Shown: positions 20,416-33,208, counted from the first letter of the stretch. The stretch is DNA of 64,000 nt from an uncultured Eubacterium sp. (GCA_945946665.1 CAMEWO010000010.1:1781-65780), one strand, 5' to 3'. Numbers and translations: made by a program. Notes: a model not told the origin generated them from the sequence alone.

Positions 20416-20490
20416 GGGAAAAGGTGTCAGTAGAAAATATATGCCAGATTAACGCTGCTGTGGGCAGTGCATGATAGAAAAGAGGAAGAT

Positions 20491-22209
20491 ATGGCACTTG
20501 AGAAAAACGATATTGTTCGTCTTACAATCAGTGATATAGGAACAGATGGAGAGGGTATAGGTAAGGTTGACGGCTATACCCTCTTTGTTAAAGATGCGGT
20601 AATAGGAGATACAATTACCGCAAGGGTTATCAAGTTAAAGAAGAATTATGGATATGGAAGACTTATGGAGGTTATAGAGCCTTCAAAGGACAGGGTGGAG
20701 CCTGTATGCCCCGTCGCAAGGCAGTGTGGCGGTTGTCAGATTCAGCAGATGTCATATGATGCACAGCTGGATTTCAAGAGAAAGCTGGTTGAAGGTAATC
20801 TTAGAAGAATCGGTGGATTTTCAGATATTGATGTCCTTCCAGTTATAGGTATGGAGGAGCCTTACCATTACCGCAACAAGGCCCAGTATCCTGTGGGACG
20901 TGACAAGGATGGCAACGTGGTAATAGGCTTCTATGCAGGAAGAACCCATTGTATTATTGATAACCAGGACTGTGCAATAGGCGCCAGGGAGAATGTGAAG
21001 ATTCTTACAGCCATCCGTGATTATATTAATGAGAACAAAGTAAGCGTGTATGATGAAAACACAGGAAAAGGGGCGGTAAGGCATATTCTTATCCGCAAAG
21101 GTTTCCACACGGGACAGGTGATGGTGTGCATTGTGGTGAATGGAGAGTCACTGCCTCATGAGGACAAGCTGGTGGCAAAGCTTACAGGGTTGGAATTTTA
21201 CAATGAAACTGATGAAAAGACTAATTCTGTTGAAGGATTAGAAACAGCAGATTCTGTAAAGGGAAAAGCTGTGCCAAATATATCTTCTGTAATGATAAAT
21301 ATTAACAGGGAGAATACTAATGTAATTCTGGGAGACAGATGCAGGACACTGTGGGGAAAGGATTATATTGAGGATTCTATTAATGGAATTACATTTCAGA
21401 TATCACCACTGTCTTTTTATCAGGTAAATCCTGTGCAGACGGAAAAACTGTACGGAAAAGCCCTTGAATTTGCCGGGCTTACAGGTAATGAGGTGGTATG
21501 GGATATGTACTGCGGTATAGGTACTATTTCCCTTATTATGGCAACCAGGGCAAAGAAAGTGTATGGCGTGGAGATTGTTCCTGCTGCTATTGAGAATGCA
21601 AAGAACAATGCAAGAATTAACGGACTGGATAATGCGGAATTCTATGTTGGCAAATCGGAGGAGATTGCTCCTAAGCTTGCAGAGCAGGGAGCAGTTCCTG
21701 ATGTTATCGTGGTAGACCCTCCAAGAAAGGGCTGTGATGAGGCATTGCTTGATACCATAGTAAAGATGCAGCCTGAAAGGGTAGTGTATGTAAGCTGCGA
21801 TTCTGCAACTCTGGCAAGAGACCTTAAATACCTTGCAGCCAGGGGATATGAGGTGAAAACTGTGCAGCCAGTGGACCAGTTCTGCCATACGGTGCATGTG
21901 GAGAGTGTTGTTCTTTTGTCCCAACAAAAAGCGGATGATTATCTGGAAGTAGAGATCGACTTGGATGAGCTTGATGCTACTAGCGCAGAGACTAAGGCTA
22001 CATATGAAGAAATTAAGAAATATGTTGCAGAGCATAATGATGGGATGAAGGTATCTAACCTTTATATTGCGCAGGTGAAGAAGAAATGTGGAATTGAGCT
22101 AGGACAGAATTTTAATTTGCCTAAATCTGAGAATGCTAAGCAACCACAGTGTCCGAAAGAAAAAGAGGATGCTATTGTGGAGGCATTGAAGGCGTTTCAG
22201 ATGATATAA
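20491..22209 (+). CDS. rlmD: 23S rRNA (uracil1939-C5)-methyltransferase RlmD/RumA; about 100 C-terminal residues supplied by the integrated element
   Basis: TRAM domain, CGGCQ, YRNK, VDPPRKG, YVSCD, HVE; RBS-supported start at 20491. Confidence 0.95.
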   Translation: MALEKNDIVRLTISDIGTDGEGIGKVDGYTLFVKDAVIGDTITARVIKLKKNYGYGRLMEVIEPSKDRVEPVCPVARQCGGCQIQQMSYDAQLDFKRKLVEGNLRRIGGFSDIDVLPVIGMEEPYHYRNKAQYPVGRDKDGNVVIGFYAGRTHCIIDNQDCAIGARENVKILTAIRDYINENKVSVYDENTGKGAVRHILIRKGFHTGQVMVCIVVNGESLPHEDKLVAKLTGLEFYNETDEKTNSVEGLETADSVKGKAVPNISSVMININRENTNVILGDRCRTLWGKDYIEDSINGITFQISPLSFYQVNPVQTEKLYGKALEFAGLTGNEVVWDMYCGIGTISLIMATRAKKVYGVEIVPAAIENAKNNARINGLDNAEFYVGKSEEIAPKLAEQGAVPDVIVVDPPRKGCDEALLDTIVKMQPERVVYVSCDSATLARDLKYLAARGYEVKTVQPVDQFCHTVHVESVVLLSQQKADDYLEVEIDLDELDATSAETKATYEEIKKYVAEHNDGMKVSNLYIAQVKKKCGIELGQNFNLPKSENAKQPQCPKEKEDAIVEALKAFQMI

Positions 22210-22374
22210 TATCTATATGCACTTAGCCTTAAGTGCTTGTTTAATATACAACACCCCTGTAGATGCATGTCAAGGTTTTACACCTTTACATGGTTCTGCA
22301 AGGGTGTTATTTCTATTGTTAAATATGGAAAAATGAAAATAAAATAGAACATGGTATTGCTAAGCTAGTTTGGG

Positions 22375-22403
22375 TTGACAACATATAAATATAGTGCTAC
22401 CAT
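22375..22403 (+). promoter_or_regulatory. Sigma-A promoter for the ABC-F cargo
   Basis: TTGACA-17-TACCAT with extended -10 TG. Confidence 0.65.
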
Positions 22404-22604
22404 AGGCATAGATTTTAGAGAAAGAGCACATTTTATGTGTATGGTGAGGAAATGAATAATAGATAGTTTAATTTAGGTGAAACAAATAAGAAGTTGATGC
22501 TGCAGAGGCAGTCTTATTTGTGTACGCTTAATTTAGATTATCGCATAGTTCATTTTCTTTTTAATTTCGTGATATGAAATTTAATAAGGATAAATTTGTG
22601 TGTG

Positions 22605-22639
22605 AGTCTGTATTTGCGTATGCAAGTACAGACTTTTTT
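22605..22639 (+). terminator. Leader terminator (putative attenuator) upstream of ABC-F
   Basis: agtctgtatttgc-gtat-gcaagtacagact followed by T-tract, 27 nt before the ATG. Confidence 0.65.
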
Positions 22640-22666
22640 GCTTCTGTCAAAAAGGGAGTGAAGTAT

Positions 22667-24214
22667 ATGTTACAAATAAACGGACTGAATTTAACACATA
22701 AAAAAGACTTAAGGATAATATTGGACAAGTTTGACCTTGTATTAAACTATGGTGATAAAGCTGCAATCATAGGTGAAGAAGGAAATGGTAAATCAACACT
22801 TATGAAATGGATATATAATCCAGAAATTGTGGAAGATTATATTGAAGCAGAGGGGACGAGAATACTTGGAAATGAAAGACTTGGTTATCTGCCCCAGGAG
22901 CTTCAAGACAAGGATAAGGAAAAAAGTCTATATGAATTCTTTTCAGAAATGGACTGTTTTTGGAATCAGACGCCAAAGGATTTGGGAGAATATGCAAACA
23001 AATTTGGAGTGTCTGTAGACTTTTTCTATAGTGAACAAAAGCTTGTAACACTTTCTGGAGGGGAGAAGGTAAAGGCTCAGCTTATGAAATTACTAATGCA
23101 GGAACCAACTGTACTTTTAATGGATGAGCCCTCAAATGATATTGATATTGCCAGTCTTGAGCTTTTGGAAAAAATCATAAATGAGTGGCAATACATCGTA
23201 CTTTTTATATCACATGATGAGACATTAATTGAGAATACTGCAAATATGATTGTCCATATTGAGCAGATTCAGAGAAAAACAAAATGCAGGTATACTGTTG
23301 CAAAGATGGGATATAGAAAATATGTGGAAGAAAGACTCAATGCTTTTGAAAAACAGGAGCAGCAGGCTTTAAGCGACAAACGTGAAAAGCAAATCAGAGA
23401 TGAGAAGTATAGACGAGTTTTAGATAGTGTGCAGCATGCTTTAGAGGATTGCTCAAGGCAGTGTCCTTCAGTAGCAAAAAATCTAAAGGATAAGATGCAT
23501 ACGGTAAAGTCTATGGGGAAACGATTTGAAAAAGAAGATGAAAATATGACACAGATGCCAGAACAGGAGACTGCGATATTTTTTAAACTTGGAAGTGAAA
23601 CATCAAAAATCCCTGCAGGAAAAACAGTTGTAGAATACAGCCTGGACAAATTATATACACCAGATGAGGATAGGATATTATCAAAAGATATTGTTTTAAA
23701 TATCAAAGGCTCGGAAAAAATATGTATAGTTGGTATGAATGGTGCAGGGAAAACTACTCTTTTAAGAAAGATGGCACAAGACCTGTTAAACAGAACTGAT
23801 ATCAGAGCAGAATATATGCCGCAAAATTATGAAGATTTATTAGACTTAAATATGACACCAGTGGATTTTTTGGATAAAACAGGAGAAAAGGAAGAAAGAA
23901 CAAAAATCAGAACCTATCTTGGCTCATTAAAATACACGGCAGATGAGATGGATCATCCAATCAGAGAGTTGTCAGGAGGTCAAAAAGCGAAAGTTCTCTT
24001 GCTTAAAATGAGTATGTCTGAGGCAAATGTGTTGATATTAGATGAGCCCACTAGAAATTTTTCTCCTTTATCAGGGCCGGTTATTAGAAAAATGATACAG
24101 GAATTTCCCGGTGCTGTAATCAGTATTTCGCACGACAGAAAATATATAAAAGAGGTATGTGAAAAGATATACGAATTAACCGTTGATGGACTTAAACAAA
24201 GGGAGATGGAATAG
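22667..24214 (+). CDS. ABC-F family ATPase
   Basis: Two NBDs (GEEGNGKST, GMNGAGKTT; LSGGE/Q; DEP), no TM domain, long inter-ABC linker; RBS gggag before 22667. Confidence 0.88.
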   Translation: MLQINGLNLTHKKDLRIILDKFDLVLNYGDKAAIIGEEGNGKSTLMKWIYNPEIVEDYIEAEGTRILGNERLGYLPQELQDKDKEKSLYEFFSEMDCFWNQTPKDLGEYANKFGVSVDFFYSEQKLVTLSGGEKVKAQLMKLLMQEPTVLLMDEPSNDIDIASLELLEKIINEWQYIVLFISHDETLIENTANMIVHIEQIQRKTKCRYTVAKMGYRKYVEERLNAFEKQEQQALSDKREKQIRDEKYRRVLDSVQHALEDCSRQCPSVAKNLKDKMHTVKSMGKRFEKEDENMTQMPEQETAIFFKLGSETSKIPAGKTVVEYSLDKLYTPDEDRILSKDIVLNIKGSEKICIVGMNGAGKTTLLRKMAQDLLNRTDIRAEYMPQNYEDLLDLNMTPVDFLDKTGEKEERTKIRTYLGSLKYTADEMDHPIRELSGGQKAKVLLLKMSMSEANVLILDEPTRNFSPLSGPVIRKMIQEFPGAVISISHDRKYIKEVCEKIYELTVDGLKQREME

Positions 24215-24215
24215 G

Positions 24216-25058
24216 ATGATTGATTGGACAAATATAAAAAAGATAGATGCACATATACATTTAATGCCATCAGATGTTATTGAGGCAAATAAAGAGTATG
24301 GTGGTAACTTTATAGATTTTGGAGATGTGGAAGATTATCTCAAAATAATGGATAAATATAATATTGAGTCAGCATTTATAATGCCGTTCAATGATCCATA
24401 CATGTTATCTATGGATTTTAATGTATGTACCGTTCATAATAATTTGCTTGATATGTGTGGCAAAGCAAAAAATAGATTGTTTTGCTTTGCCGATATCGAT
24501 ATCAGAAATGATATAGAGAAGACAATTCAAATATTAGAAGATGCAGTGAGAAGGGAAGAGGTATTAGGCGTGAAAATACATGCAGCAAATACCAGTTATC
24601 CGATTGATGGCATATATTATGATGAGATTTTTAAATGGGCAAATAAAAATAATATTTTAGTTGAGATACATTCGTATCCAAGAACACACCTTATGGATGA
24701 TATGTGTTCTCCGACTAGAATAAAAAATATTATAAAAAAATATCCGAAGCTACGTATGTCAATTGCTCATATTGGAGGCTTCCAATATGAAGAGTTAACT
24801 GACCTTGGACTGTTTTTTAATATTTCTGCTATTTTGCCAGATTTGGTAGACAAGTACGGTATTGCTGGTACAAATAAAATCTTAAGAAGATTAGATGTAG
24901 AAAAATTAGTATTTGCTACTGATTATCCTGATAATCGTAAACTTGAACCTATCGAAATATATGACAAATATTTTGAAATTCTTAGTCAAATGGACTTTTC
25001 AGAGGAAGAAGCTGAGAAAATATGCAGGCTAAATGCATTAAAAATGATTAATAAATGA
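24216..25058 (+). CDS. Amidohydrolase_2 family metal-dependent hydrolase
   Basis: IDAHIH, GVKIH, VEIHS, AHIGG, FATDYP. Confidence 0.85.
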   Translation: MIDWTNIKKIDAHIHLMPSDVIEANKEYGGNFIDFGDVEDYLKIMDKYNIESAFIMPFNDPYMLSMDFNVCTVHNNLLDMCGKAKNRLFCFADIDIRNDIEKTIQILEDAVRREEVLGVKIHAANTSYPIDGIYYDEIFKWANKNNILVEIHSYPRTHLMDDMCSPTRIKNIIKKYPKLRMSIAHIGGFQYEELTDLGLFFNISAILPDLVDKYGIAGTNKILRRLDVEKLVFATDYPDNRKLEPIEIYDKYFEILSQMDFSEEEAEKICRLNALKMINK

Positions 25059-25079
25059 CATAAAACGTCTAGAAATATA

Positions 25080-25127
25080 GGTATCTTATTATGTGGAAAT
25101 CGCATAATCAGATGCCTTTTTTTATTT
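25080..25127 (+). terminator. Probable intrinsic terminator after the cargo operon
   Basis: aggtatct-tattatgtg...cgcataatc-agatgcct followed by T-tract. Confidence 0.5.
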
Positions 25128-25338
25128 TTCAGAATCTAAATGAGTTTACACCTTAGCTTGTGTTAAATCCATGTATAAGTCGTTCTAAGCTTGGGACTTT
25201 TTATCCCAAGGCACATCTATTAGCTTATGTTCCAGTGGCTCAGAAGCTTTCTAATTATTTTTGAATAATCGTGAATTTTTCATTTTTTAAGCTATTACCT
25301 GGATGCAAGAAAAAATAAATAAAAAGGAAGATTAAGAG

Positions 25339-25667
25339 TTTTTGTTCCCATATTCCCTATGTAAGGTTGAAAAAGTTTTGTAAAAAAGTGCAACGAAAGG
25401 AAATTTTCTTCCCATATGCATTTTGTAAAGGGTTAAGAAATTTTGCTTAGTATCTGTAATCACGAATTCTAGGCTCCAAGTACTTAATAGTAAAAACTTT
25501 ATAAATTTTTTGCTTGTATTTAGTAATCAGGATTTTTTCAACCCAAATGTAGTGTAGAAAGATAAAAATTTCTGCAATCAGATTTTTCATGTCCCAAGTA
25601 CTTTATGAAAGGAAAATTTGTAATCACCTTTTTTTGACCCTAAGTACTTTATGAAAGGAAAAATCTG
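25339..25667 (+). repeat. Degenerate tandem array of about 6 units (45-65 bp)
   Basis: Recurring [taatca]-T-tract-CCC-x-gtactt/atg(t/a)aagg-A-tract-tttg; two units share cc(c/t)aagtactttatgaaaggaaaa. Confidence 0.6.
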
Positions 25668-25906
25668 AAAAAACTGCAGATGCGTCTGTTCAATCGCCTA
25701 TGTGAATTATGTAAGTAGGGAGATTGGCTGATAGACCAGTATTGCAGTGAAAAACTTTTGTGCTGCGTGAAGGTATTAGGTGGATATGTTACCAAATACA
25801 GTTCAGATAGGCACAAAAGGAATTGCACTATAACTTGCTTCCCGGGAAAAGCAAGTTGTAGTGAGTGGATTTTTTGAGCCCGTCCAGGGTGCAACCTTGG
25901 TCCAGG

Positions 25907-26011
25907 TTTTGTCAACATCGTTGACAAAAAGAAGTGATGTGCACGTCACTTCGTACTGGGTACTATCTGGCGGAGGTAATGCCTGTTCCGTTCGCAGAGG
26001 TGTCTGCGAAC
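25907..26011. promoter_or_regulatory. Probable oriT/RSA region of the MobV relaxase
   Basis: Three hairpins immediately upstream of mobV: ttttgtcaac/gttgacaaaa, gaagtga/tcacttc, gttcgcaga/tctgcgaac. Confidence 0.55.
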
Positions 26012-26066
26012 CCATTGGTTGTGAAGCCAGATTAACAGAAAAATTTTACAGTGAAAGGAGTGCGCA

Positions 26067-27350
26067 ATGAAAGCGACAAGACACAATGGTCGAAGTGGAA
26101 AGCACGGCTCCTACAATCCTAAGCATAATGATAGGCAATTTGATATTTCACATAGTGAGCATATAGATGGAGAGTTGGCATTACAGAATGTGTATTGGGA
26201 TTGTTATGGAGGGAGACGTACTTCCGCTGAAACTCCAGAAAATGATGAGAGCTTTGAGGAAGTTGAGCTCAGATTTTATCACGATAATTATCAGGACTCT
26301 GTTAATGGACAGAATTATAGAAATGAATGCTATGGACATTCTGAGAGAAATCGTTCTGTGGAGGAAATCTATCGTAATAAGAAAACATGTCCTGAAGAAA
26401 GCATTTTGCAACTTGGCAATATTGATGGAAGTGTAAGTGCAGAAACACTAATGAATGTTGCAGAAACATTTTTTGAGCAATTTAACGAGCGGTTTGGAGA
26501 GCATGTCCATATTCTTGATTGGGCGCTACATGTGGACGAAAAAACACCGCATATCCATGAAAGACATGTATTCGATGCATTAAATGCACACGGAGAACTA
26601 GCACCACAACAGGATAAGGCACTTGAGGCACTTGGAATTGATCTTCCAGATCCAAATAAACCAAAGAGTAAATCCAATAATCGAAAGATGGTATTCGATG
26701 CAATTTGTAGAGATATGTTTTTATCCATTTGTGAGGAGTATGGGCTTTCTGTGGATCGAGAACCGACCTATGGTGGCAAGAAATATCTTGACAAGCAGGA
26801 TTTTATAATTCAAAATCAGCAGACTCGGCTGGCAAATATTGCAGATCAAGTGGCAGACAAAGAAAAAGATTTAGAAAAGGCGAATGTAGAGTTTGCTGCT
26901 ATAGATACGATTATGAATTCAATCGCATCATCCATCTATGACAGTACTTGTAGCGTTGTAGCTGAAGTGGTTACTAGGGATGTGCTGAAGAGGAGTATCG
27001 ACAGTGCAAAAGCTGCGAAGGATGAGGAAGAGCGTACAAGCTTTTATTCAAGTTATGAAAAACAAGCTATGGGAAGTTTGCTGAAAAGATTTATCAATCG
27101 AGTTGAGCAGACAATTGATGATGTTGTTTATAGGGTAAAATGCAAGTTTTCACAAGATGACAATAGGAGCAAGAATATACAACTTGTGCAACAAAAAATG
27201 TGGAGAAATTTGGACCGTCTAGCAGAGTCTGGACCTCATGATTATGAAATTTGCTATGGAAATGAATTGAATTATAGCGACATGGGAAAGGTCGGTTCCA
27301 AAACACAGGAGATAGCTCAACAGGTTGTTCGTAGAAGGAGGGGACGTTAA
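26067..27350 (+). CDS. MobV/Pre-family (TnpZ-like) relaxase
   Basis: N-terminal KHNDR, HVDEKTPHIH motif, coiled-coil tail. Confidence 0.85.
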   Translation: MKATRHNGRSGKHGSYNPKHNDRQFDISHSEHIDGELALQNVYWDCYGGRRTSAETPENDESFEEVELRFYHDNYQDSVNGQNYRNECYGHSERNRSVEEIYRNKKTCPEESILQLGNIDGSVSAETLMNVAETFFEQFNERFGEHVHILDWALHVDEKTPHIHERHVFDALNAHGELAPQQDKALEALGIDLPDPNKPKSKSNNRKMVFDAICRDMFLSICEEYGLSVDREPTYGGKKYLDKQDFIIQNQQTRLANIADQVADKEKDLEKANVEFAAIDTIMNSIASSIYDSTCSVVAEVVTRDVLKRSIDSAKAAKDEEERTSFYSSYEKQAMGSLLKRFINRVEQTIDDVVYRVKCKFSQDDNRSKNIQLVQQKMWRNLDRLAESGPHDYEICYGNELNYSDMGKVGSKTQEIAQQVVRRRRGR

Positions 27351-27839
27351 TTGTCATTTGAAAAGAGAATAAATTATATCAAAAAGAATACGAAGCTTCC
27401 TTCGTATGTTCCACTTCCTAGTAGCATGATTGGGACAGGCCTTAGCTCATCTGCAATGATTTTATATGCAGAACTGTTAAATAGAGCAAGCCTGTCACAG
27501 AAAAATGATATGACGGATGAATTTGGAAATGTATATGTTATCTATCCTATTGATCAACTAAGTAAGCGTCTAAATTTATCAGAAACACAGATAAAGCGTT
27601 TGATTAAGGAGCTTGTAAATGAAGGCCTCTTGAAGAAGAGAAGCGGAGGATTTAATAAACCAAATCACTTATTTGTTATTCTTCCAGGGGAGCAAAAAGG
27701 AACTACTGGGGAGACCACAAATGGCACTACTGTAGGTGCAAAAAAGGCACCACTGACAGTACATAAAGGGCCTACTAACTACTATAACAAAACACTTGAT
27801 GAAACTACTTATACATATGATGAAGGGGAGAGTTTTTAA
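27351..27839 (+). CDS. Replication initiator-like winged-helix protein (RepA_N/HTH type)
   Basis: AMILYAELLNRASLSQKN..TDEFGNVYVIYPI, HTH, KPN.LFV; TTG start. Confidence 0.7.
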   Translation: MSFEKRINYIKKNTKLPSYVPLPSSMIGTGLSSSAMILYAELLNRASLSQKNDMTDEFGNVYVIYPIDQLSKRLNLSETQIKRLIKELVNEGLLKKRSGGFNKPNHLFVILPGEQKGTTGETTNGTTVGAKKAPLTVHKGPTNYYNKTLDETTYTYDEGESF

Positions 27840-27841
27840 TT

Positions 27842-28642
27842 ATGGAAAAGAAAAATACTTATTTAGGAAATGATGGTTTGCTCCATTGCACTGTATGTAA
27901 TGAAGCTGTAGAAGTAAAATTTGATGTTCCTGTAATGGGAATCACAGGTCATGGCAGAATGTGTAAGTGCCAGAGAGAGTTGCAGAAGCAGATAGAGGAA
28001 CGACAGAGACAGCAGGAGGAACATATTAAAAGAGACCGTTGTTTTCCAAGTTGTATCCAGCATGAATGGACATTTGAAAATGATAATGGTCGTAATTCCA
28101 AGATGCAAGTTGCTAAGAAATATGTGGCTAACTGGAATGAAATGAAGAAAAATGGCTTAGGGCTTTTGCTTTGGGGCTCTGTAGGCATTGGTAAAAGCTA
28201 TATGGCAGCATGCGTGGCAAATGAATTGATTAAGCAAGGAGCCGACGTAAAGATGACCAACTTTGCAACCGTATTAAATGATTTATTCAATTGCGAGGAT
28301 AAGAATGAATATATTAGATCCTTATGCAGATATAGTCTTTTGATTTTAGATGATTTGGGAATTGAGCGTAATACGGAATATTCTTTGGAAAATCTATTTA
28401 ATGTGATTGATGCCAGATATGTGTCAGGAAAGGCGATGATTATTACAACCAATTTAAATTTAGAGGAATTGAAGAATCAGAAGCAGCTTAGCTTAAAGCG
28501 AATTTATGACCGAGTACTGGAGCGCTGTATTCCAGTATGTGTTTCAGAGAATGATTTTAGAAAAGATAATAGGGTGGAAGCAAAGGTCAAATTTGGAAAG
28601 ATAATTAATGGGGGCAAGATGGATGAAGAAAAATATGAATAG
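27842..28642 (+). CDS. DnaC/IstB-like ATPase (helicase loader)
   Basis: Cys-rich N-terminus, GSVGIGKS Walker A, LLILDDLG, IITTN. Confidence 0.88.
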   Translation: MEKKNTYLGNDGLLHCTVCNEAVEVKFDVPVMGITGHGRMCKCQRELQKQIEERQRQQEEHIKRDRCFPSCIQHEWTFENDNGRNSKMQVAKKYVANWNEMKKNGLGLLLWGSVGIGKSYMAACVANELIKQGADVKMTNFATVLNDLFNCEDKNEYIRSLCRYSLLILDDLGIERNTEYSLENLFNVIDARYVSGKAMIITTNLNLEELKNQKQLSLKRIYDRVLERCIPVCVSENDFRKDNRVEAKVKFGKIINGGKMDEEKYE

Positions 28643-28913
28643 AGCAATTAATGAAAAATACTTTAATGATCCAGTACAAAATGCAGCATTTATTTGTTGT
28701 ATTGATGTTCTTGCTGAGCTGGTGGAAAAGTATGGAGACAAGGTGTTAGATACTATTTCAGATGGTGTGAATTCTAGTAATGTTTGCGACTATATTTTTA
28801 TTGCAAATGGAATGTCTGTATTATGTGAGGCTGAGAAAATAACAAACGCAGATATTTTAAAAGCATATGTTCAGGTAGCTTACGCTAATGGACTAATTGC
28901 AAAAAGTGCGTAG
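28608..28913 (+). CDS. Small hypothetical protein of the element
   Basis: About 100-aa ORF coupled to the ATPase gene; exact start uncertain. Confidence 0.55.
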   Translation: MGARWMKKNMNRAINEKYFNDPVQNAAFICCIDVLAELVEKYGDKVLDTISDGVNSSNVCDYIFIANGMSVLCEAEKITNADILKAYVQVAYANGLIAKSA

Positions 28914-28928
28914 TGCCTAAAACACAAA

Positions 28929-28957
28929 TTGACACACTGTGGGTTTAATGCTATTAT
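28929..28957 (+). promoter_or_regulatory. Sigma-A promoter flanked by two GTG(A/C)C..G(A/G)CAC inverted motifs
   Basis: TTGACA-17-TATTAT with extended -10 TG. Confidence 0.65.
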
Positions 28958-28990
28958 TGTGACAAATATCAAAATGGCACAGATGTAAGT

Positions 28991-29293
28991 GTGGAGTTGG
29001 AGGCAACTATGATTAATACATTAAAAGAAGCGTTAGAGCGTATCAATGAGCTGGAAGCGGAAAATAAACAGTTACTATCAGAATTAGAGTATTACAGGAA
29101 TAGAAATTATGGAGGTAGAAAGAAACATAATGAAGCGTGGATGACTGCTTATAATGATTTTGTTGTGAAATATGAGGGTGGTATGACTATTATGGAGATT
29201 GTGGCTGAAAGCGATATTAGTAGAAGGACAGCATACCGATATAAAGCCTATTATGACAAGCTAAAAGATGCGGGAAAAAAATCTTCTATATGA
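28991..29293 (+). CDS. Coiled-coil plus resolvase-type HTH protein
   Basis: GMTIMEIVAESDISRRTAYRY HTH. Confidence 0.7.
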   Translation: MELEATMINTLKEALERINELEAENKQLLSELEYYRNRNYGGRKKHNEAWMTAYNDFVVKYEGGMTIMEIVAESDISRRTAYRYKAYYDKLKDAGKKSSI

Positions 29294-29296
29294 TAG

Positions 29297-29320
29297 TTTA
29301 AACCCGTCGAATTCGACGGG
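29297..29320. promoter_or_regulatory. Upstream copy of the KilA-N internal palindrome
   Basis: tttaaacccgtcgaattcgacggg is identical to 29582-29605. Confidence 0.8.
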
Positions 29321-29365
29321 GTAAGAAGTTAAGGTTATAAATTGTGACGTTAAAATTATTGGAGG

Positions 29366-30232
29366 ATGGAATGTATGGCAGAAAATATAAAAAAGGAAAT
29401 AATTCATGCAAATGGATTTGACATTCGTATTTTCACAACTGATTTTGAAAATGAATATTTATCACTTACCGATATAGCAAAATATAAAAGCAATGATCCT
29501 AATGATGTTATTAAGAATTGGATGAGAGGTCGAGAGACATTGGAGTTTCTTGGATTATGGGAAAAGTTACATAATTCTGATTTTAAACCCGTCGAATTCG
29601 ACGGGTTTAAAAGTGAAGCAGGACTTCATGCTTTTACTATGTCGCCTACTAAATGGATTGAGGGAGTAAATGCTATTGGTATAGTATCAAAAGCTGGAAG
29701 ATATGGTGGTACTTATGCACATTCGGATATTGCATTAGAGTTTGCTTCATGGGTATCGGCAGAGTTTAAGCTGTATATTATGAAAGACTACCAACGGTTA
29801 AAAAAGGATGAAAACAGTAGATTATCTTTAAATTGGAATCTTAATCGCGAGATTGCAAAGTTGAATTATAAAATACATACGGATGCAATAAAAGAAAATC
29901 TAATTCCGCCAGAGCTGACAATGGAGCAGATTTCATATAAGTATGCGAATGAAGCAGATTTGCTAAATGTTGCTTTGTTTGGCGAAACAGCAAAACAATG
30001 GCGCGAAAAGAATCCTGAGATTAAAGGCAATATTCGAGATGAAGCAAATTTGAATCAATTATTGGTTCTTGCAAATATGGAAAGCTATAATTCGATTTTG
30101 ATTGAACAAGGGAAATTGATGTCTGAACGTTTGGTGCTGCTAAGAAATCTGGCAGTGAAGCAGATGAGTACATTATCCTCCGCATGTTTGGAGGATATAA
30201 AGAGATTACCAGGAGGGGATAAAATTGACTAA
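29366..30232 (+). CDS. KilA-N domain DNA-binding protein
   Basis: YLSLTDIAK, IKNWMR, LGLWEKLHN, GRYGGTYAHSDIALEFASWVS. Confidence 0.9.
   Translation: MECMAENIKKEIIHANGFDIRIFTTDFENEYLSLTDIAKYKSNDPNDVIKNWMRGRETLEFLGLWEKLHNSDFKPVEFDGFKSEAGLHAFTMSPTKWIEGVNAIGIVSKAGRYGGTYAHSDIALEFASWVSAEFKLYIMKDYQRLKKDENSRLSLNWNLNREIAKLNYKIHTDAIKENLIPPELTMEQISYKYANEADLLNVALFGETAKQWREKNPEIKGNIRDEANLNQLLVLANMESYNSILIEQGKLMSERLVLLRNLAVKQMSTLSSACLEDIKRLPGGDKID
29581..29612. repeat. Perfect 32-bp palindrome inside the KilA-N CDS
   Basis: ttttaaacccgtcgaa|ttcgacgggtttaaaa, encodes FKPVEFDGFK. Confidence 0.95.
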
Positions 30233-31922
30233 AAAGCGAAAGTGTTACATATATACACGTGTATCAACGGCTATGCAGGTTGATGGATATAGTTTGGATG
30301 CACAAAAGGAAAAATTAAAAAAGTATGCAGCATATGAAGAAATGCAAATTGTTGGAGAGTATTCAGATGAAGGTCATTCAGGAAAGAATATAGCTGGAAG
30401 ACCAGAATTTGTAAGAATGTTAGAAGATATTGAGGATGGCAAGGACGAGGTTACTTTCGTCCTTGTTTTCAAATTATCGAGATTTGGACGTAATGCTGCA
30501 GATGTATTAAATTCTTTACAGCTAATGCAGGATTATGGAGTGAACCTTATTTGTGTTGAGGATGGGATTGACAGCTCAAAGGAATCTGGGAAGCTCATGA
30601 TTTCCATTCTTTCTGCTGTAGCGGAACTTGAACGTGAGAATATTCTTGTTCAAACAATGGAAGGACGTAAGCAGAAAGCTAGAGAAGGAAAATGGAATGG
30701 AGGTTTTGCTCCATATGGCTATAAGCTTGAAGATGGAGAACTTATTATAGCAGAGGATGAAGCAGAGACTATAAGAGTTATATTTGATAAATACATTCAT
30801 ACAAATCTAGGAGCTAATGGAATTGCAGAGTATTTGAATACGCATGGTTACAAAAAGAAAAAGCGTCAAAATAATACATTAGATGCATTCGCACCATCAT
30901 TTATAAAAGGCGTTCTTGATAATCCAATTTATATGGGGAAGATGCCTTATGGAAGACGCGCGACAGAGAAAATTCCAGGAACAAGAAATGAATTCCATGT
31001 AGTAAAGCAGGATGAATATTCGCTTTATGAAGGAGCTCATGATGCCATCATTTCAGAAGAAGATTTTGCGTTGGCAAAACAGAAGCGCGTTGATACTGGA
31101 GTTAGATTAAAAAAAACACATAGCCTGGATCACGAACATATTTTATCAGGAATTTTAAAATGCCCGGTGTGTGGTGGCGCAATGTATGCAAACGTGAATC
31201 GAAAGAAGAAAAAAGATGGCACGTATTATAGAGATTTTTTCTATTATGCTTGTAAGCATAGAATAAGAATTGATGGACACAGTTGCGATTATCATAAGCA
31301 GTGGGGGCAGGATAAAGTAAATGCTGCAGTAGAAGAAGTGATTAGAAAAATGGTTAATAATCCAAAATTTCAGACTGCACTTAAGCAAAAAATAGGTTCT
31401 AAAATAGATACATCTGAATTGGATAAGGAAAAAGTTGTCTTAAATAAGCAATTACAGCAGGCTATAGGTGCAAAGAACAAAATTGCTGAGCAGATGGACA
31501 GACTTGATATTACAGATAAACATTATGACCGAAAATATGAGGATATGCAGAATCGATTGGATAAGCAGTATGATGAGATTTCATCATTAGAGGAAAAGAT
31601 TGAATCAGTAAGTTTGCGAATTGATAACCTCCATAAAAACAAATTATCTGGGGAAGCAGTCTATCAAATATTGTTACAGTTTGATAAAATGTATTCAGAG
31701 TTTACAGATTTAGAAAAGAAACGATTTCTTAAATCATTTGTGAAGGATGTATTTGTCCATGAGCAGGAACTCCCGGATGGAAGATTTTTAAAGGGAATCA
31801 AATTCAGGTTCCCAATCTTTTATAATGGAGTTGAAACAGATCAACTTGATTTTGAAAGTTGTTGGGACAAAGAAACGAATGACGAGACGGTTTGTTTGCT
31901 ATCGCGTAAAGCCCAAGTTTAA
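30225..31922 (+). CDS. Large serine recombinase (integrase); last residues ETVCLLSRKAQV are rlmD-like
   Basis: YIYTRVST, YSDEGHSG, SRFGRN, CPVCGG zinc ribbon, coiled coil. Confidence 0.95.
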   Translation: MTKKRKCYIYTRVSTAMQVDGYSLDAQKEKLKKYAAYEEMQIVGEYSDEGHSGKNIAGRPEFVRMLEDIEDGKDEVTFVLVFKLSRFGRNAADVLNSLQLMQDYGVNLICVEDGIDSSKESGKLMISILSAVAELERENILVQTMEGRKQKAREGKWNGGFAPYGYKLEDGELIIAEDEAETIRVIFDKYIHTNLGANGIAEYLNTHGYKKKKRQNNTLDAFAPSFIKGVLDNPIYMGKMPYGRRATEKIPGTRNEFHVVKQDEYSLYEGAHDAIISEEDFALAKQKRVDTGVRLKKTHSLDHEHILSGILKCPVCGGAMYANVNRKKKKDGTYYRDFFYYACKHRIRIDGHSCDYHKQWGQDKVNAAVEEVIRKMVNNPKFQTALKQKIGSKIDTSELDKEKVVLNKQLQQAIGAKNKIAEQMDRLDITDKHYDRKYEDMQNRLDKQYDEISSLEEKIESVSLRIDNLHKNKLSGEAVYQILLQFDKMYSEFTDLEKKRFLKSFVKDVFVHEQELPDGRFLKGIKFRFPIFYNGVETDQLDFESCWDKETNDETVCLLSRKAQV

Positions 31923-31940: not shown

Positions 31941-32129
31941 TTGATAAATACAAGAGGTACGCAGGAACTGCATAGCAATAGTACAACATTTGGTGTAAAA
32001 GAAAATATGTATTGGATACCAATTAATGAATTGGACAATTACAAGGCATTTCCTACTTTCATGAAAGATTATTTATGCCGAGAGCATGTTGGAATTGAGC
32101 ATATTGTAACGGATGAAAGGACTAGGTGA
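31941..32129 (+). pseudogene. C-terminal remnant of a NUDIX-like hydrolase
   Basis: RGTQEL..MYWIPINEL..KAFPTFMKDYL..GIEHIVTDER resembles a NUDIX C-terminal half; no N-terminus or RBS. Confidence 0.45.
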
Positions 32130-33208
32130 TATTCTTGGATAAATATTGGAAATTAGAACTAAATGAATATATTCGCCAAGGCGAGCCAGATAAAATTGAA
32201 AAAAGTAATGCATGGAAAACCGCTATTGGTCTTCAGGATGTAGACGGACTTAAACCTTCTGCGTACTTGATTGAAACTGCGAAAAATCATATTGAGGGTA
32301 ATATTAGCATAACGGAAGCAGATAAGCGTATTCATAGCTATTATGAAGAACGAAAAGACAGAAATGAAATGGAAGAAGATACTAAGGAAGCAGATATAGT
32401 TTCTGTAAGAATTGTAAAATTACTCGGAGAGAAGACATTTCAGTTTTCACCGGTAGAATGGCAGAATATTCATCGTAGATTATTTGAAGGTCTGTTTAGT
32501 CATGCCGAAAAAATTCGTGATTACAATATCACGAAAAAAGAGTGGATACTTAAAGGTGATGCAGTAATGTATGCATCATTGAATAATATTCGTGCCACGC
32601 TTGACTATGATTTTTCACAGGAGAAGAACTTCTCCTACGAAGGATTGACCATAGATGAATCTGTTCGTCACATTGCAAAGTTCACTTCTGGAATATGGCA
32701 GATTCATCCCTTTGGAGAAGGAAATACCAGATCGACTGCGGTATTTATCATTAAGTACTTGAAGACCTTTGGATTTGCTGTAAGTAATGAAACTTTTGCA
32801 GAAAACTCATGGTATTTTAGAAATGCATTAGTAAGAGCTAATTATAATGATTTGCAAAATGGCGTGTATGCTACTACTGAGTTCTTGGAATTGTTTTTTG
32901 AAAATCTTTTGATGAATGCGGGGCATGAATTAAAAAATAGATATATGCATGTAGATTTTGACAAACAAAGTGCAAATCAAAGTGCAGATAGTAATGATTC
33001 AAAGTGCAAAATTTGCACTTTGGAGGAATTGGCTATTATTCAGGAGTTAAAAAGGAATCCTGCAATTACTCAAAGAGAATTAGCAAAAGCTAGTGGTAAA
33101 TCGGAGAGAACAGTAAAAACGAGAACCGTTGAAATGCAAGAAAAAGGTTTGATAATTCGTGAAAATGGCAAACGAAATGGCAAGTGGAAGCTGTTGGTTG
33201 AAATTTGA
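32126..33208 (+). CDS. Fic-domain protein with VbhA-like N-terminus and C-terminal HTH
   Basis: AIGLQDVDGL, HPFGEGNTRST Fic motif, NPAITQRELAKASG HTH. Confidence 0.88.
   Translation: MIFLDKYWKLELNEYIRQGEPDKIEKSNAWKTAIGLQDVDGLKPSAYLIETAKNHIEGNISITEADKRIHSYYEERKDRNEMEEDTKEADIVSVRIVKLLGEKTFQFSPVEWQNIHRRLFEGLFSHAEKIRDYNITKKEWILKGDAVMYASLNNIRATLDYDFSQEKNFSYEGLTIDESVRHIAKFTSGIWQIHPFGEGNTRSTAVFIIKYLKTFGFAVSNETFAENSWYFRNALVRANYNDLQNGVYATTEFLELFFENLLMNAGHELKNRYMHVDFDKQSANQSADSNDSKCKICTLEELAIIQELKRNPAITQRELAKASGKSERTVKTRTVEMQEKGLIIRENGKRNGKWKLLVEI

Follow-up and report, generated by a model that had tools for sequence, protein, structure and literature searches.

In a 64,000-nt stretch of an uncultured Eubacterium sp. 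(GCA_945946665.1 CAMEWO010000010.1:1781-65780; hereafter the window, with all coordinates counted from its first letter), the 23S rRNA methyltransferase gene rlmD (rumA) ends in codons supplied by a 10-kb mobile element, and the integrase gene at the other end of this element finishes in codons that belong to rlmD. The locus raises the question of how the two genes came to carry each other's 3' ends, and of what the element-encoded tail (defined here as the 101 element-encoded residues after the crossover codon of RlmD) might do. How the swap comes about is clear, and usual for the rumA/rlmD element family: the arrangement and the idea of a state switch were already published in 2014 and 2016 (PMC4120198, PMC4701971), and the window is one more example, with descriptive additions. 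New here are the purifying selection on the tail, its occurrence across species-representative genomes, an attP palindrome that codes for the motifs CWDKE and LLSQQ, and the free-standing homologues of the tail domain (phrog_27283). Taken as a whole, our explanation, namely an integrated element that exchanged 3' ends with rlmD in frame and whose tail is captured by translation, is very probably correct.

Insertion in rlmD and exchange of 3' ends

The rlmD open reading frame (ORF) spans 20467..22209 (580 amino acids, aa) and the integrase ORF 30225..31922 (565 aa). Each contains a GAGA core, at 21901-21904 and 31884-31887 respectively, the first base of which opens a GAG codon: position 21901 is in frame with the start of rlmD (21901-20467 = 1434 = 478x3; GAG, then AGT), as is 31884 with the start of the integrase gene (1659 = 553x3; GAG, then ACG), and the element between the two cores measures 9,983 bp. 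RlmD reads ...HTVHVE/SVVLLSQQKADD...KAFQMI (the slash marks the crossover), with 101 residues coming from the element, and the integrase reads ...WDKETNDE/TVCLLSRKAQV followed by a stop, its last 11 residues being displaced rlmD codons. These coordinates and translations agree with the original prediction, made from the sequence of the window, that a GAGA core starts a codon in both genes, that RlmD is extended by about 100 element residues and that the integrase ends in NDE-TVCLLSRKAQV.

Intact rlmD genes of same-genus relatives end in HVE/TVVLLSQLK, HVE/TVCLLSKKP and similar, with the stop 9 residues past the same codon (as against 11 displaced codons in the window), and three other relatives have an rlmD with different versions of the long tail. 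In a metagenome contig from run X16, position 21900 is followed directly by 31884, so that 9983 bp are missing and four letters (GAGA) fit either side; this joint is the empty site and sets the ends of the element at the GAGA cores. The integrase has the Resolvase, Recombinase and zinc-ribbon domains (PF00239, E-value 1e-39; PF07508, 2e-19; PF13408, 6e-12). The domains, the frames and the empty-site joint together identify a serine-recombinase element in rlmD/rumA with a GA crossover, an element that its large serine recombinase placed at the GA of a GAG codon 11 codons before the rlmD stop, and the reading frames and native rlmD ends of the relatives bear out that integration swaps the 3' ends of rlmD and the integrase gene in frame; both points had been anticipated. 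A second integrase that is just 42% identical (P0013) has the same core read through in the same frame. An assembly chimera is ruled out, as the left junction is spanned by single contigs from independent runs and a near-identical element (99.91% over 9990 bp) lies in the rlmD of another host, behind a different element (locus L001); the structure is therefore real and mobile.

The TIGR00479 (rumA) profile ends at RlmD residue 479, the E of the core, whereas the alignment with a second RlmD profile, PRK13168, continues to residue 486, into the element-supplied residues, so the SVVLLSQ brought by the element replaces the last strand of the fold. Over the first element codons, 19 nt are identical to a native rlmD 3' end (locus L007).

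When attP was rebuilt from the left part of attR and the right part of attL, it showed 18/26 dyad matches centred on the first GA, with two 13-bp arms, TTGTTGGGACAAA (31859-31871) and TTTGTCCCAACAA (21915-21927), each 12 nt from the centre. The rebuilt site is a single open frame that runs through the integrase core, CWDKE..E, LLSQQ, an acidic linker and a 70-residue domain, the left arm supplying the CWDKE codons of the integrase and the right arm the LLSQQ codons of the tail. Because the palindrome lies inside one continuous frame, recombination with rlmD swaps the 3' ends reciprocally and in frame. As the palindrome encodes both motifs, it also explains why integrase homologues nearly all end in W-D/E...E and why tails start with [TS]V.LLS (among 120 clusters of integrase homologues, the crossover-proximal motif W-D/E..E was kept in 118 by pattern match), and it accounts for the lowered synonymous divergence (dS) in the first eight tail codons, 0.41 as compared with about 1.2 elsewhere in the tail.

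In TnpX of Tn4451, likewise a large serine recombinase, the crossover dinucleotide is also GA, but target specificity is low and TnpX elements are not known to swap coding ends with a host gene. Much closer are the vanG elements and ICE-r described by Srinivasan 2014 (PMC4120198) in rumA of streptococci, Enterococcus faecalis and Roseburia intestinalis, where the GA target belongs to the codon that is 11th from the 3' end of rumA, the serine recombinase genes cross the right end without a stop, and left ends of 101-115 codons without a start are fused in frame to rumA, also in tandem insertions; the double in-frame fusion was deemed intriguing in that study and its significance unknown, and rumA elements with only short replacement ends were found to exist as well. 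Compared by description, the window has the same GA in a GAG about 11 codons from the end, a stop-less integrase gene at the right end and a start-less left end of 101 codons, but those elements are conjugative and 45 kb long, whereas that of the window is a 10-kb, probably mobilizable one with an ABC-F gene. According to Ambroset 2016 (PMC4701971), rumA and the integrase gene trade their 3' parts reciprocally when an element integrates in rumA, and the integrase probably functions differently in its two forms, for which Mx8 is cited. In the streptococcal rumA integrative conjugative elements and integrative mobilizable elements (IMEs) with Ser_4 integrases (e.g., IME_SpnAP200_rumA; PMC4701971, PMC5357655, PMC5704250), attR likewise falls within the integrase gene, the excised-form integrase has a different length, the IMEs also carry replisome organizer and DnaC-type maintenance genes, and tandem accretion is common. 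The window resembles them in these shared features and differs in its host, a metagenome-assembled genome of a gut member of the class Clostridia, from pig gut metagenomes. Insertion in rlmD/rumA is among the commonest routes by which Firmicutes acquire resistance elements (vanG, erm(B), mef/tet(O), ABC-F genes).

A change of the integrase's own C-terminus upon integration is also seen in tyrosine recombinases. In IntP of Mx8, as quoted in PMC4701971, 112 residues are replaced by 13 on integration and the prophage form is less active, and in SSV-type archaeal integrases attP lies inside the integrase gene (PMC7253208), which in SSV is split into two inactive parts. Unlike in Mx8 and SSV, the integrase of the window keeps its catalytic and DNA-binding domains, and the target gene receives the displaced domain.

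Spread, selection and partners of the tail

The tail domain is very common and strongly selected. Its family comprises at least 8000 clusters at 90% identity and at least 2211 at 50% identity (E ≤ 0.001), matches occur in at least 596 stretches of species-representative genomes, and homologues are 85-122 residues long. Measured on 68 distinct sequences, the ratio of nonsynonymous to synonymous divergence (dN/dS) was 0.12 for the whole tail, 0.10 for the globular domain and 0.23, the highest among the segments, for the linker; the other two frames of these tails contain 523 and 652 stops (about 8-10 in each tail) and the tail frame none. Low dN/dS and a stop-free frame therefore mark the tail as a translated, selected protein segment, and the extension proves to be conserved in frame, one of the checks suggested with the original prediction.

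In a census of 80 species-representative loci carrying the tail, the upstream partner was RlmD in 55, a serine integrase in 6 and a short frame alone (often ...DIH.....HVE) in 19. Lacking a start codon, the tail can be produced solely by translational capture. The ends of the 120 integrase clusters, sorted by pattern match, were of the short rlmD type in 58 cases, the tail domain in 30 and a third end of about 30 residues in 19, the rest being other ends, mostly truncated tails (11/120), or matching no pattern (2/120). The third kind (P0125, P0158, P0184 and others) has about 30-35 residues of the NRKPD..V.L..DM.DYYRIKD type and is either a long RlmD end that is native to some hosts or a further type of left end.

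Among the fusions of an integrase with a tail, L001 is a clear tandem array in which element A is followed by the element of the window. The integrase of the window's element is fused to another tail variant in L018-L020, whose contigs end a few kb downstream, and the fusions in L004, L107 and L108 sit on short linear fragments without signs of circularity; none of the inspected fusions is a demonstrated circle. Four virome contigs with the tail (MT836158, MT835749, MT839491, MT837304) are not circular either, having neither a terminal repeat nor an integrase N-terminus at the far end.

A recurrent right end, ...(C)FRER...DIH.....HVE/, stands directly before tails with no integrase reading through it (L003:6145-6246, L005:6057-6137, L038, L068, L091, L098). 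It is probably the right end of another element class at the rlmD site, possibly a non-autonomous one, and the ...DIH.....HVE/ end also closes a 4.8-kb erm(B)-vat-lnu(D) block in the Streptococcus suis phage record YS387.

Fold and possible role of the tail domain

With the tail modelled alone, residues 1-29 are predicted to be disordered (predicted local distance difference test, pLDDT, < 50), and in an AlphaFold2 (AF2) model from a deeper alignment (ma4ed6e35ed20) residues 30-101 form three helices and a long loop (pLDDT 85.8, predicted template modelling score 0.73). Searches of the tail against Pfam and NCBIfam returned no family, a sequence profile search of the PDB gave no match below E 0.06, Foldseek with two tail models found nothing significant in the PDB, and structure searches of the AFDB clusters and the ESM Atlas recovered solely the tail family itself. 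The repeated best resemblance was to the DNA-binding headpieces of the LacI family (VIA-align Z 4.1-5.0 over 45 residues, root-mean-square deviation 2.1-2.4). This match to a helix-turn-helix (HTH) headpiece is not significant, with Z under the noise level of the tool and a Foldseek E > 1, so it is a lead only.

The domain also occurs outside these fusions. The family phrog_27283, which consists of 69-residue phage proteins, matches it with E 5e-4 over profile positions 2-64 of 69, and free-standing homologues of 69-72 residues start with M-ATY exactly where the tail domain starts and have the motifs ATY..I..Y, IA..K, G, N, PCP and F.MI in common with it (alignment A3). In Firmicutes and E. 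coli they lie on mobile elements and islands, and the domain is evidently able to work unfused to RlmD or an integrase. One 69-aa homologue (L130:7844-9009, minus strand) lies 56 bp upstream of a 298-aa MazF/PemK + AlbA_2 fusion, in an antitoxin-like position, with a GmrSD-like gene and TPR genes in the vicinity. Other free-standing homologues, often preceded by a small ORF, have tyrosine integrases, resolvases, DarT, HicB or restriction-like genes in their neighborhood; no antitoxin role is claimed for the domain, as the MazF/PemK-AlbA_2 neighbor was not repeated in four other places (three distinct contexts).

The most likely account is that the element repairs rlmD and keeps an accessory domain expressed by translational capture. 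In the integrated state RlmD regains its last beta-strand from the element, together with the linker and the domain, and the integrase ends in 11 host codons and a host stop. The partner of the tail is RlmD when its element stands first at the site and the integrase of the upstream element in tandem arrays, and in the excised circle the tail would be fused to the integrase of its own element. We further propose, tentatively and at somewhat less than even chances, that the globular domain works autonomously, as an accessory module which mobile elements carry on a flexible tether and which possibly binds DNA, with an activity independent of the partner, and that the fusion mainly keeps the domain expressed in every state while repairing rlmD.

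Several observations weigh against this account. The predicted attP junction, searched as an exact 36-mer, had 0 matches in viral_contigs and metagenome_contigs, and a scan for circle and empty-site joints in the assembled Logan contigs of four sequencing runs, from which rare circles would escape, gave no circle junction (go-back joint). The predicted transfer of the tail from RlmD to the integrase upon excision thus follows by construction, the rebuilt attP being one open frame, with no matching junction in the contigs searched. One locus (L021: k141_40561, P0137, 11620-11700) encodes a 656-aa integrase-tail fusion with an attP-like palindrome, TGGGACAA-13-GA-13-TTGTCCCA, in perfect spacing, yet it has no rlmD 5' part within 10 kb upstream and is flanked on both sides by apparently chromosomal genes; it may be a decayed array after rearrangement, or the unsplit form. 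Furthermore, the one pointer to the function of the domain is the weak resemblance of its predicted fold, and the contexts of the free-standing homologues are heterogeneous.

The best surviving alternative, raised both in the original prediction and by Ambroset 2016 (PMC4701971), is that the tail acts as a state switch, the excised-form integrase with its 101-aa tail and the integrated form with 11 rlmD residues differing in activity or direction, like Mx8 IntP in the data quoted in PMC4701971. Such a switch would fit the location of attP inside the integrase-tail frame, the sharing of this frame by integrases of just 42% identity and across the family, the purifying selection on the tail and the faint HTH-like look of the modelled fold. 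However, the integrase has its Resolvase, Recombinase and zinc-ribbon domains in full without the tail, which was present on 30 of the 120 integrase clusters, and the sole resolved case is located inside an integrated tandem array (L001), so the tail is no unique mark of the excised state. Elements with short replacement ends use the same rumA site (PMC4120198), the domain is also free-standing away from serine integrases, and the acidic linker is variable and predicted to be disordered. These new facts slightly weaken the switch, which is plausible by analogy and, in our estimate, unlikely. Doubtful in the same way is that the presence or absence of the tail domain alters integrase activity or direction at all, and we consider it improbable that the three-helix, possibly DNA-binding domain is a widespread mobile-element module whose partner reports the state of the element, the integrase-tail isoform differing from the tail-less prophage isoform in a serine-recombinase version of the Mx8 IntP switch that would work with no separate directionality factor. 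If the domain did tune the direction of the integrase, this would aid both the study of element stability and the engineering of serine integrases.

Alternatively, the tail could serve RlmD, the target gene being repaired and the added domain changing the activity, localization or stability of the enzyme and hence 23S rRNA methylation. The first 7-8 residues do restore the terminal strand, most tails in the species representatives (55/80) are fused to RlmD, and a terminator-like hairpin follows the tail stop, but about 9 residues suffice for the repair, as seen in the native ends and in the short-ended elements, free-standing homologues turn up in genomes, that of E. coli among them, and in contexts that have no relation to rlmD, and tails remain intact when fused to integrases or short frames, which leaves this possibility with a small probability. 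Non-functional read-through, with the fusions as a side effect of the att-site constraint and some 90 idle extra residues, would explain the DNA-level constraint at the first 8 codons and the palindrome-encoded CWDKE and LLSQQ motifs, but it is largely refuted by the selection data (dN/dS 0.10 and dS of about 1.2 across a domain far from the att site, no in-frame stops against about 8-10 in each other frame), by the at least 2211 clusters at 50% identity and by the confidently predicted fold, and is very improbable.

Gene content of the element

The features of the locus are collected in Table 1. By its predicted genes the element has the make-up of an IME, with a weak relaxase match; no type IV secretion system genes were found among the ORFs and Pfam matches of the 10-kb element.

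Table 1. Features of the rlmD locus and the integrated element in the window
Feature	Position	Strand	Evidence
rlmD, host-encoded part up to the crossover codon, with TRAM and U5-methyltransferase domains	20467..21900	+	PF01938, PF05958; TIGR00479 475.7 bits
attL core GAGA; crossover dinucleotide is the first GA (21901-21902), inside codon GAG	21901..21904	+	attP symmetry; 4-letter joint
First 8 element codons, SVVLLSQQ, replacing the last RlmD beta-strand; P' arm repeat TTTGTCCCAACAA at 21915-21927	21904..21927	+	
Acidic linker of the tail, residues 9-30, variable length	21928..21993	+	pLDDT, dN/dS, alignment A1
Three-helix globular domain (predicted), tail residues 31-101, plus stop; no own start codon	21994..22209	+	AF2 model ma4ed6e35ed20
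Terminator-like hairpin, 10 nt past the tail stop	22219..22236	+	consensus scan only
ABC-F ATPase, ribosomal-protection-like (cargo)	22574..24214	+	Pfam ABC_tran x2; NF000355 345.9 bits, cut-off 380
Amidohydrolase (cargo)	24183..25058	+	PF04909
Putative relaxase, 427 aa (weak)	26067..27350	+	PF01076 Mob_Pre, E 6e-5; 23.3 bits, cut-off 25.5
RepA_N replication initiator and IstB/DnaC-like ATPase	27351..28642	+	PF06970, PF01695
HTH_7 protein (100 aa) and KilA-N protein (288 aa), the gene of the latter overlapping the integrase start	28991..30232	+	
Large serine recombinase, element-encoded 554 aa, without its own stop; P arm TTGTTGGGACAAA encodes CWDKE	30225..31886	+	PF00239, PF07508, PF13408
attR core GAGA	31884..31887	+	frame; joint; dyad symmetry
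Displaced native rlmD 3' end (TVCLLSRKAQV plus stop), present integrase C-terminus	31887..31922	+	matches native ends of relatives

For the ABC-F gene, the NF000355 score falls below the curated NCBIfam cut-off by which antibiotic-resistance ABC-F proteins are recognized, and the gene is far under the cut-offs of the Vga, Msr, Sal and Lsa models. A hairpin with a 14-bp stem and a T-run at 22604-22635 lies inside the 5' end of the listed ABC-F ORF; the true start may therefore lie downstream of the listed one, and the gene overlaps the start of the amidohydrolase gene (22574-25058 for the pair). Beyond attR, a 62-aa ORF and then a 360-aa ORF occupy the region 32126-33208, which is outside the element according to the attB joint. 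Finally, in a 638-aa RlmD-tail protein (P0002), a part of the tail domain (YQEIKDYVLKEFGLKVSSLYISQVKRKCGIEVGENYNLPKSENARV) is repeated in about two and a half copies, as either an internal duplication or an assembly artefact.

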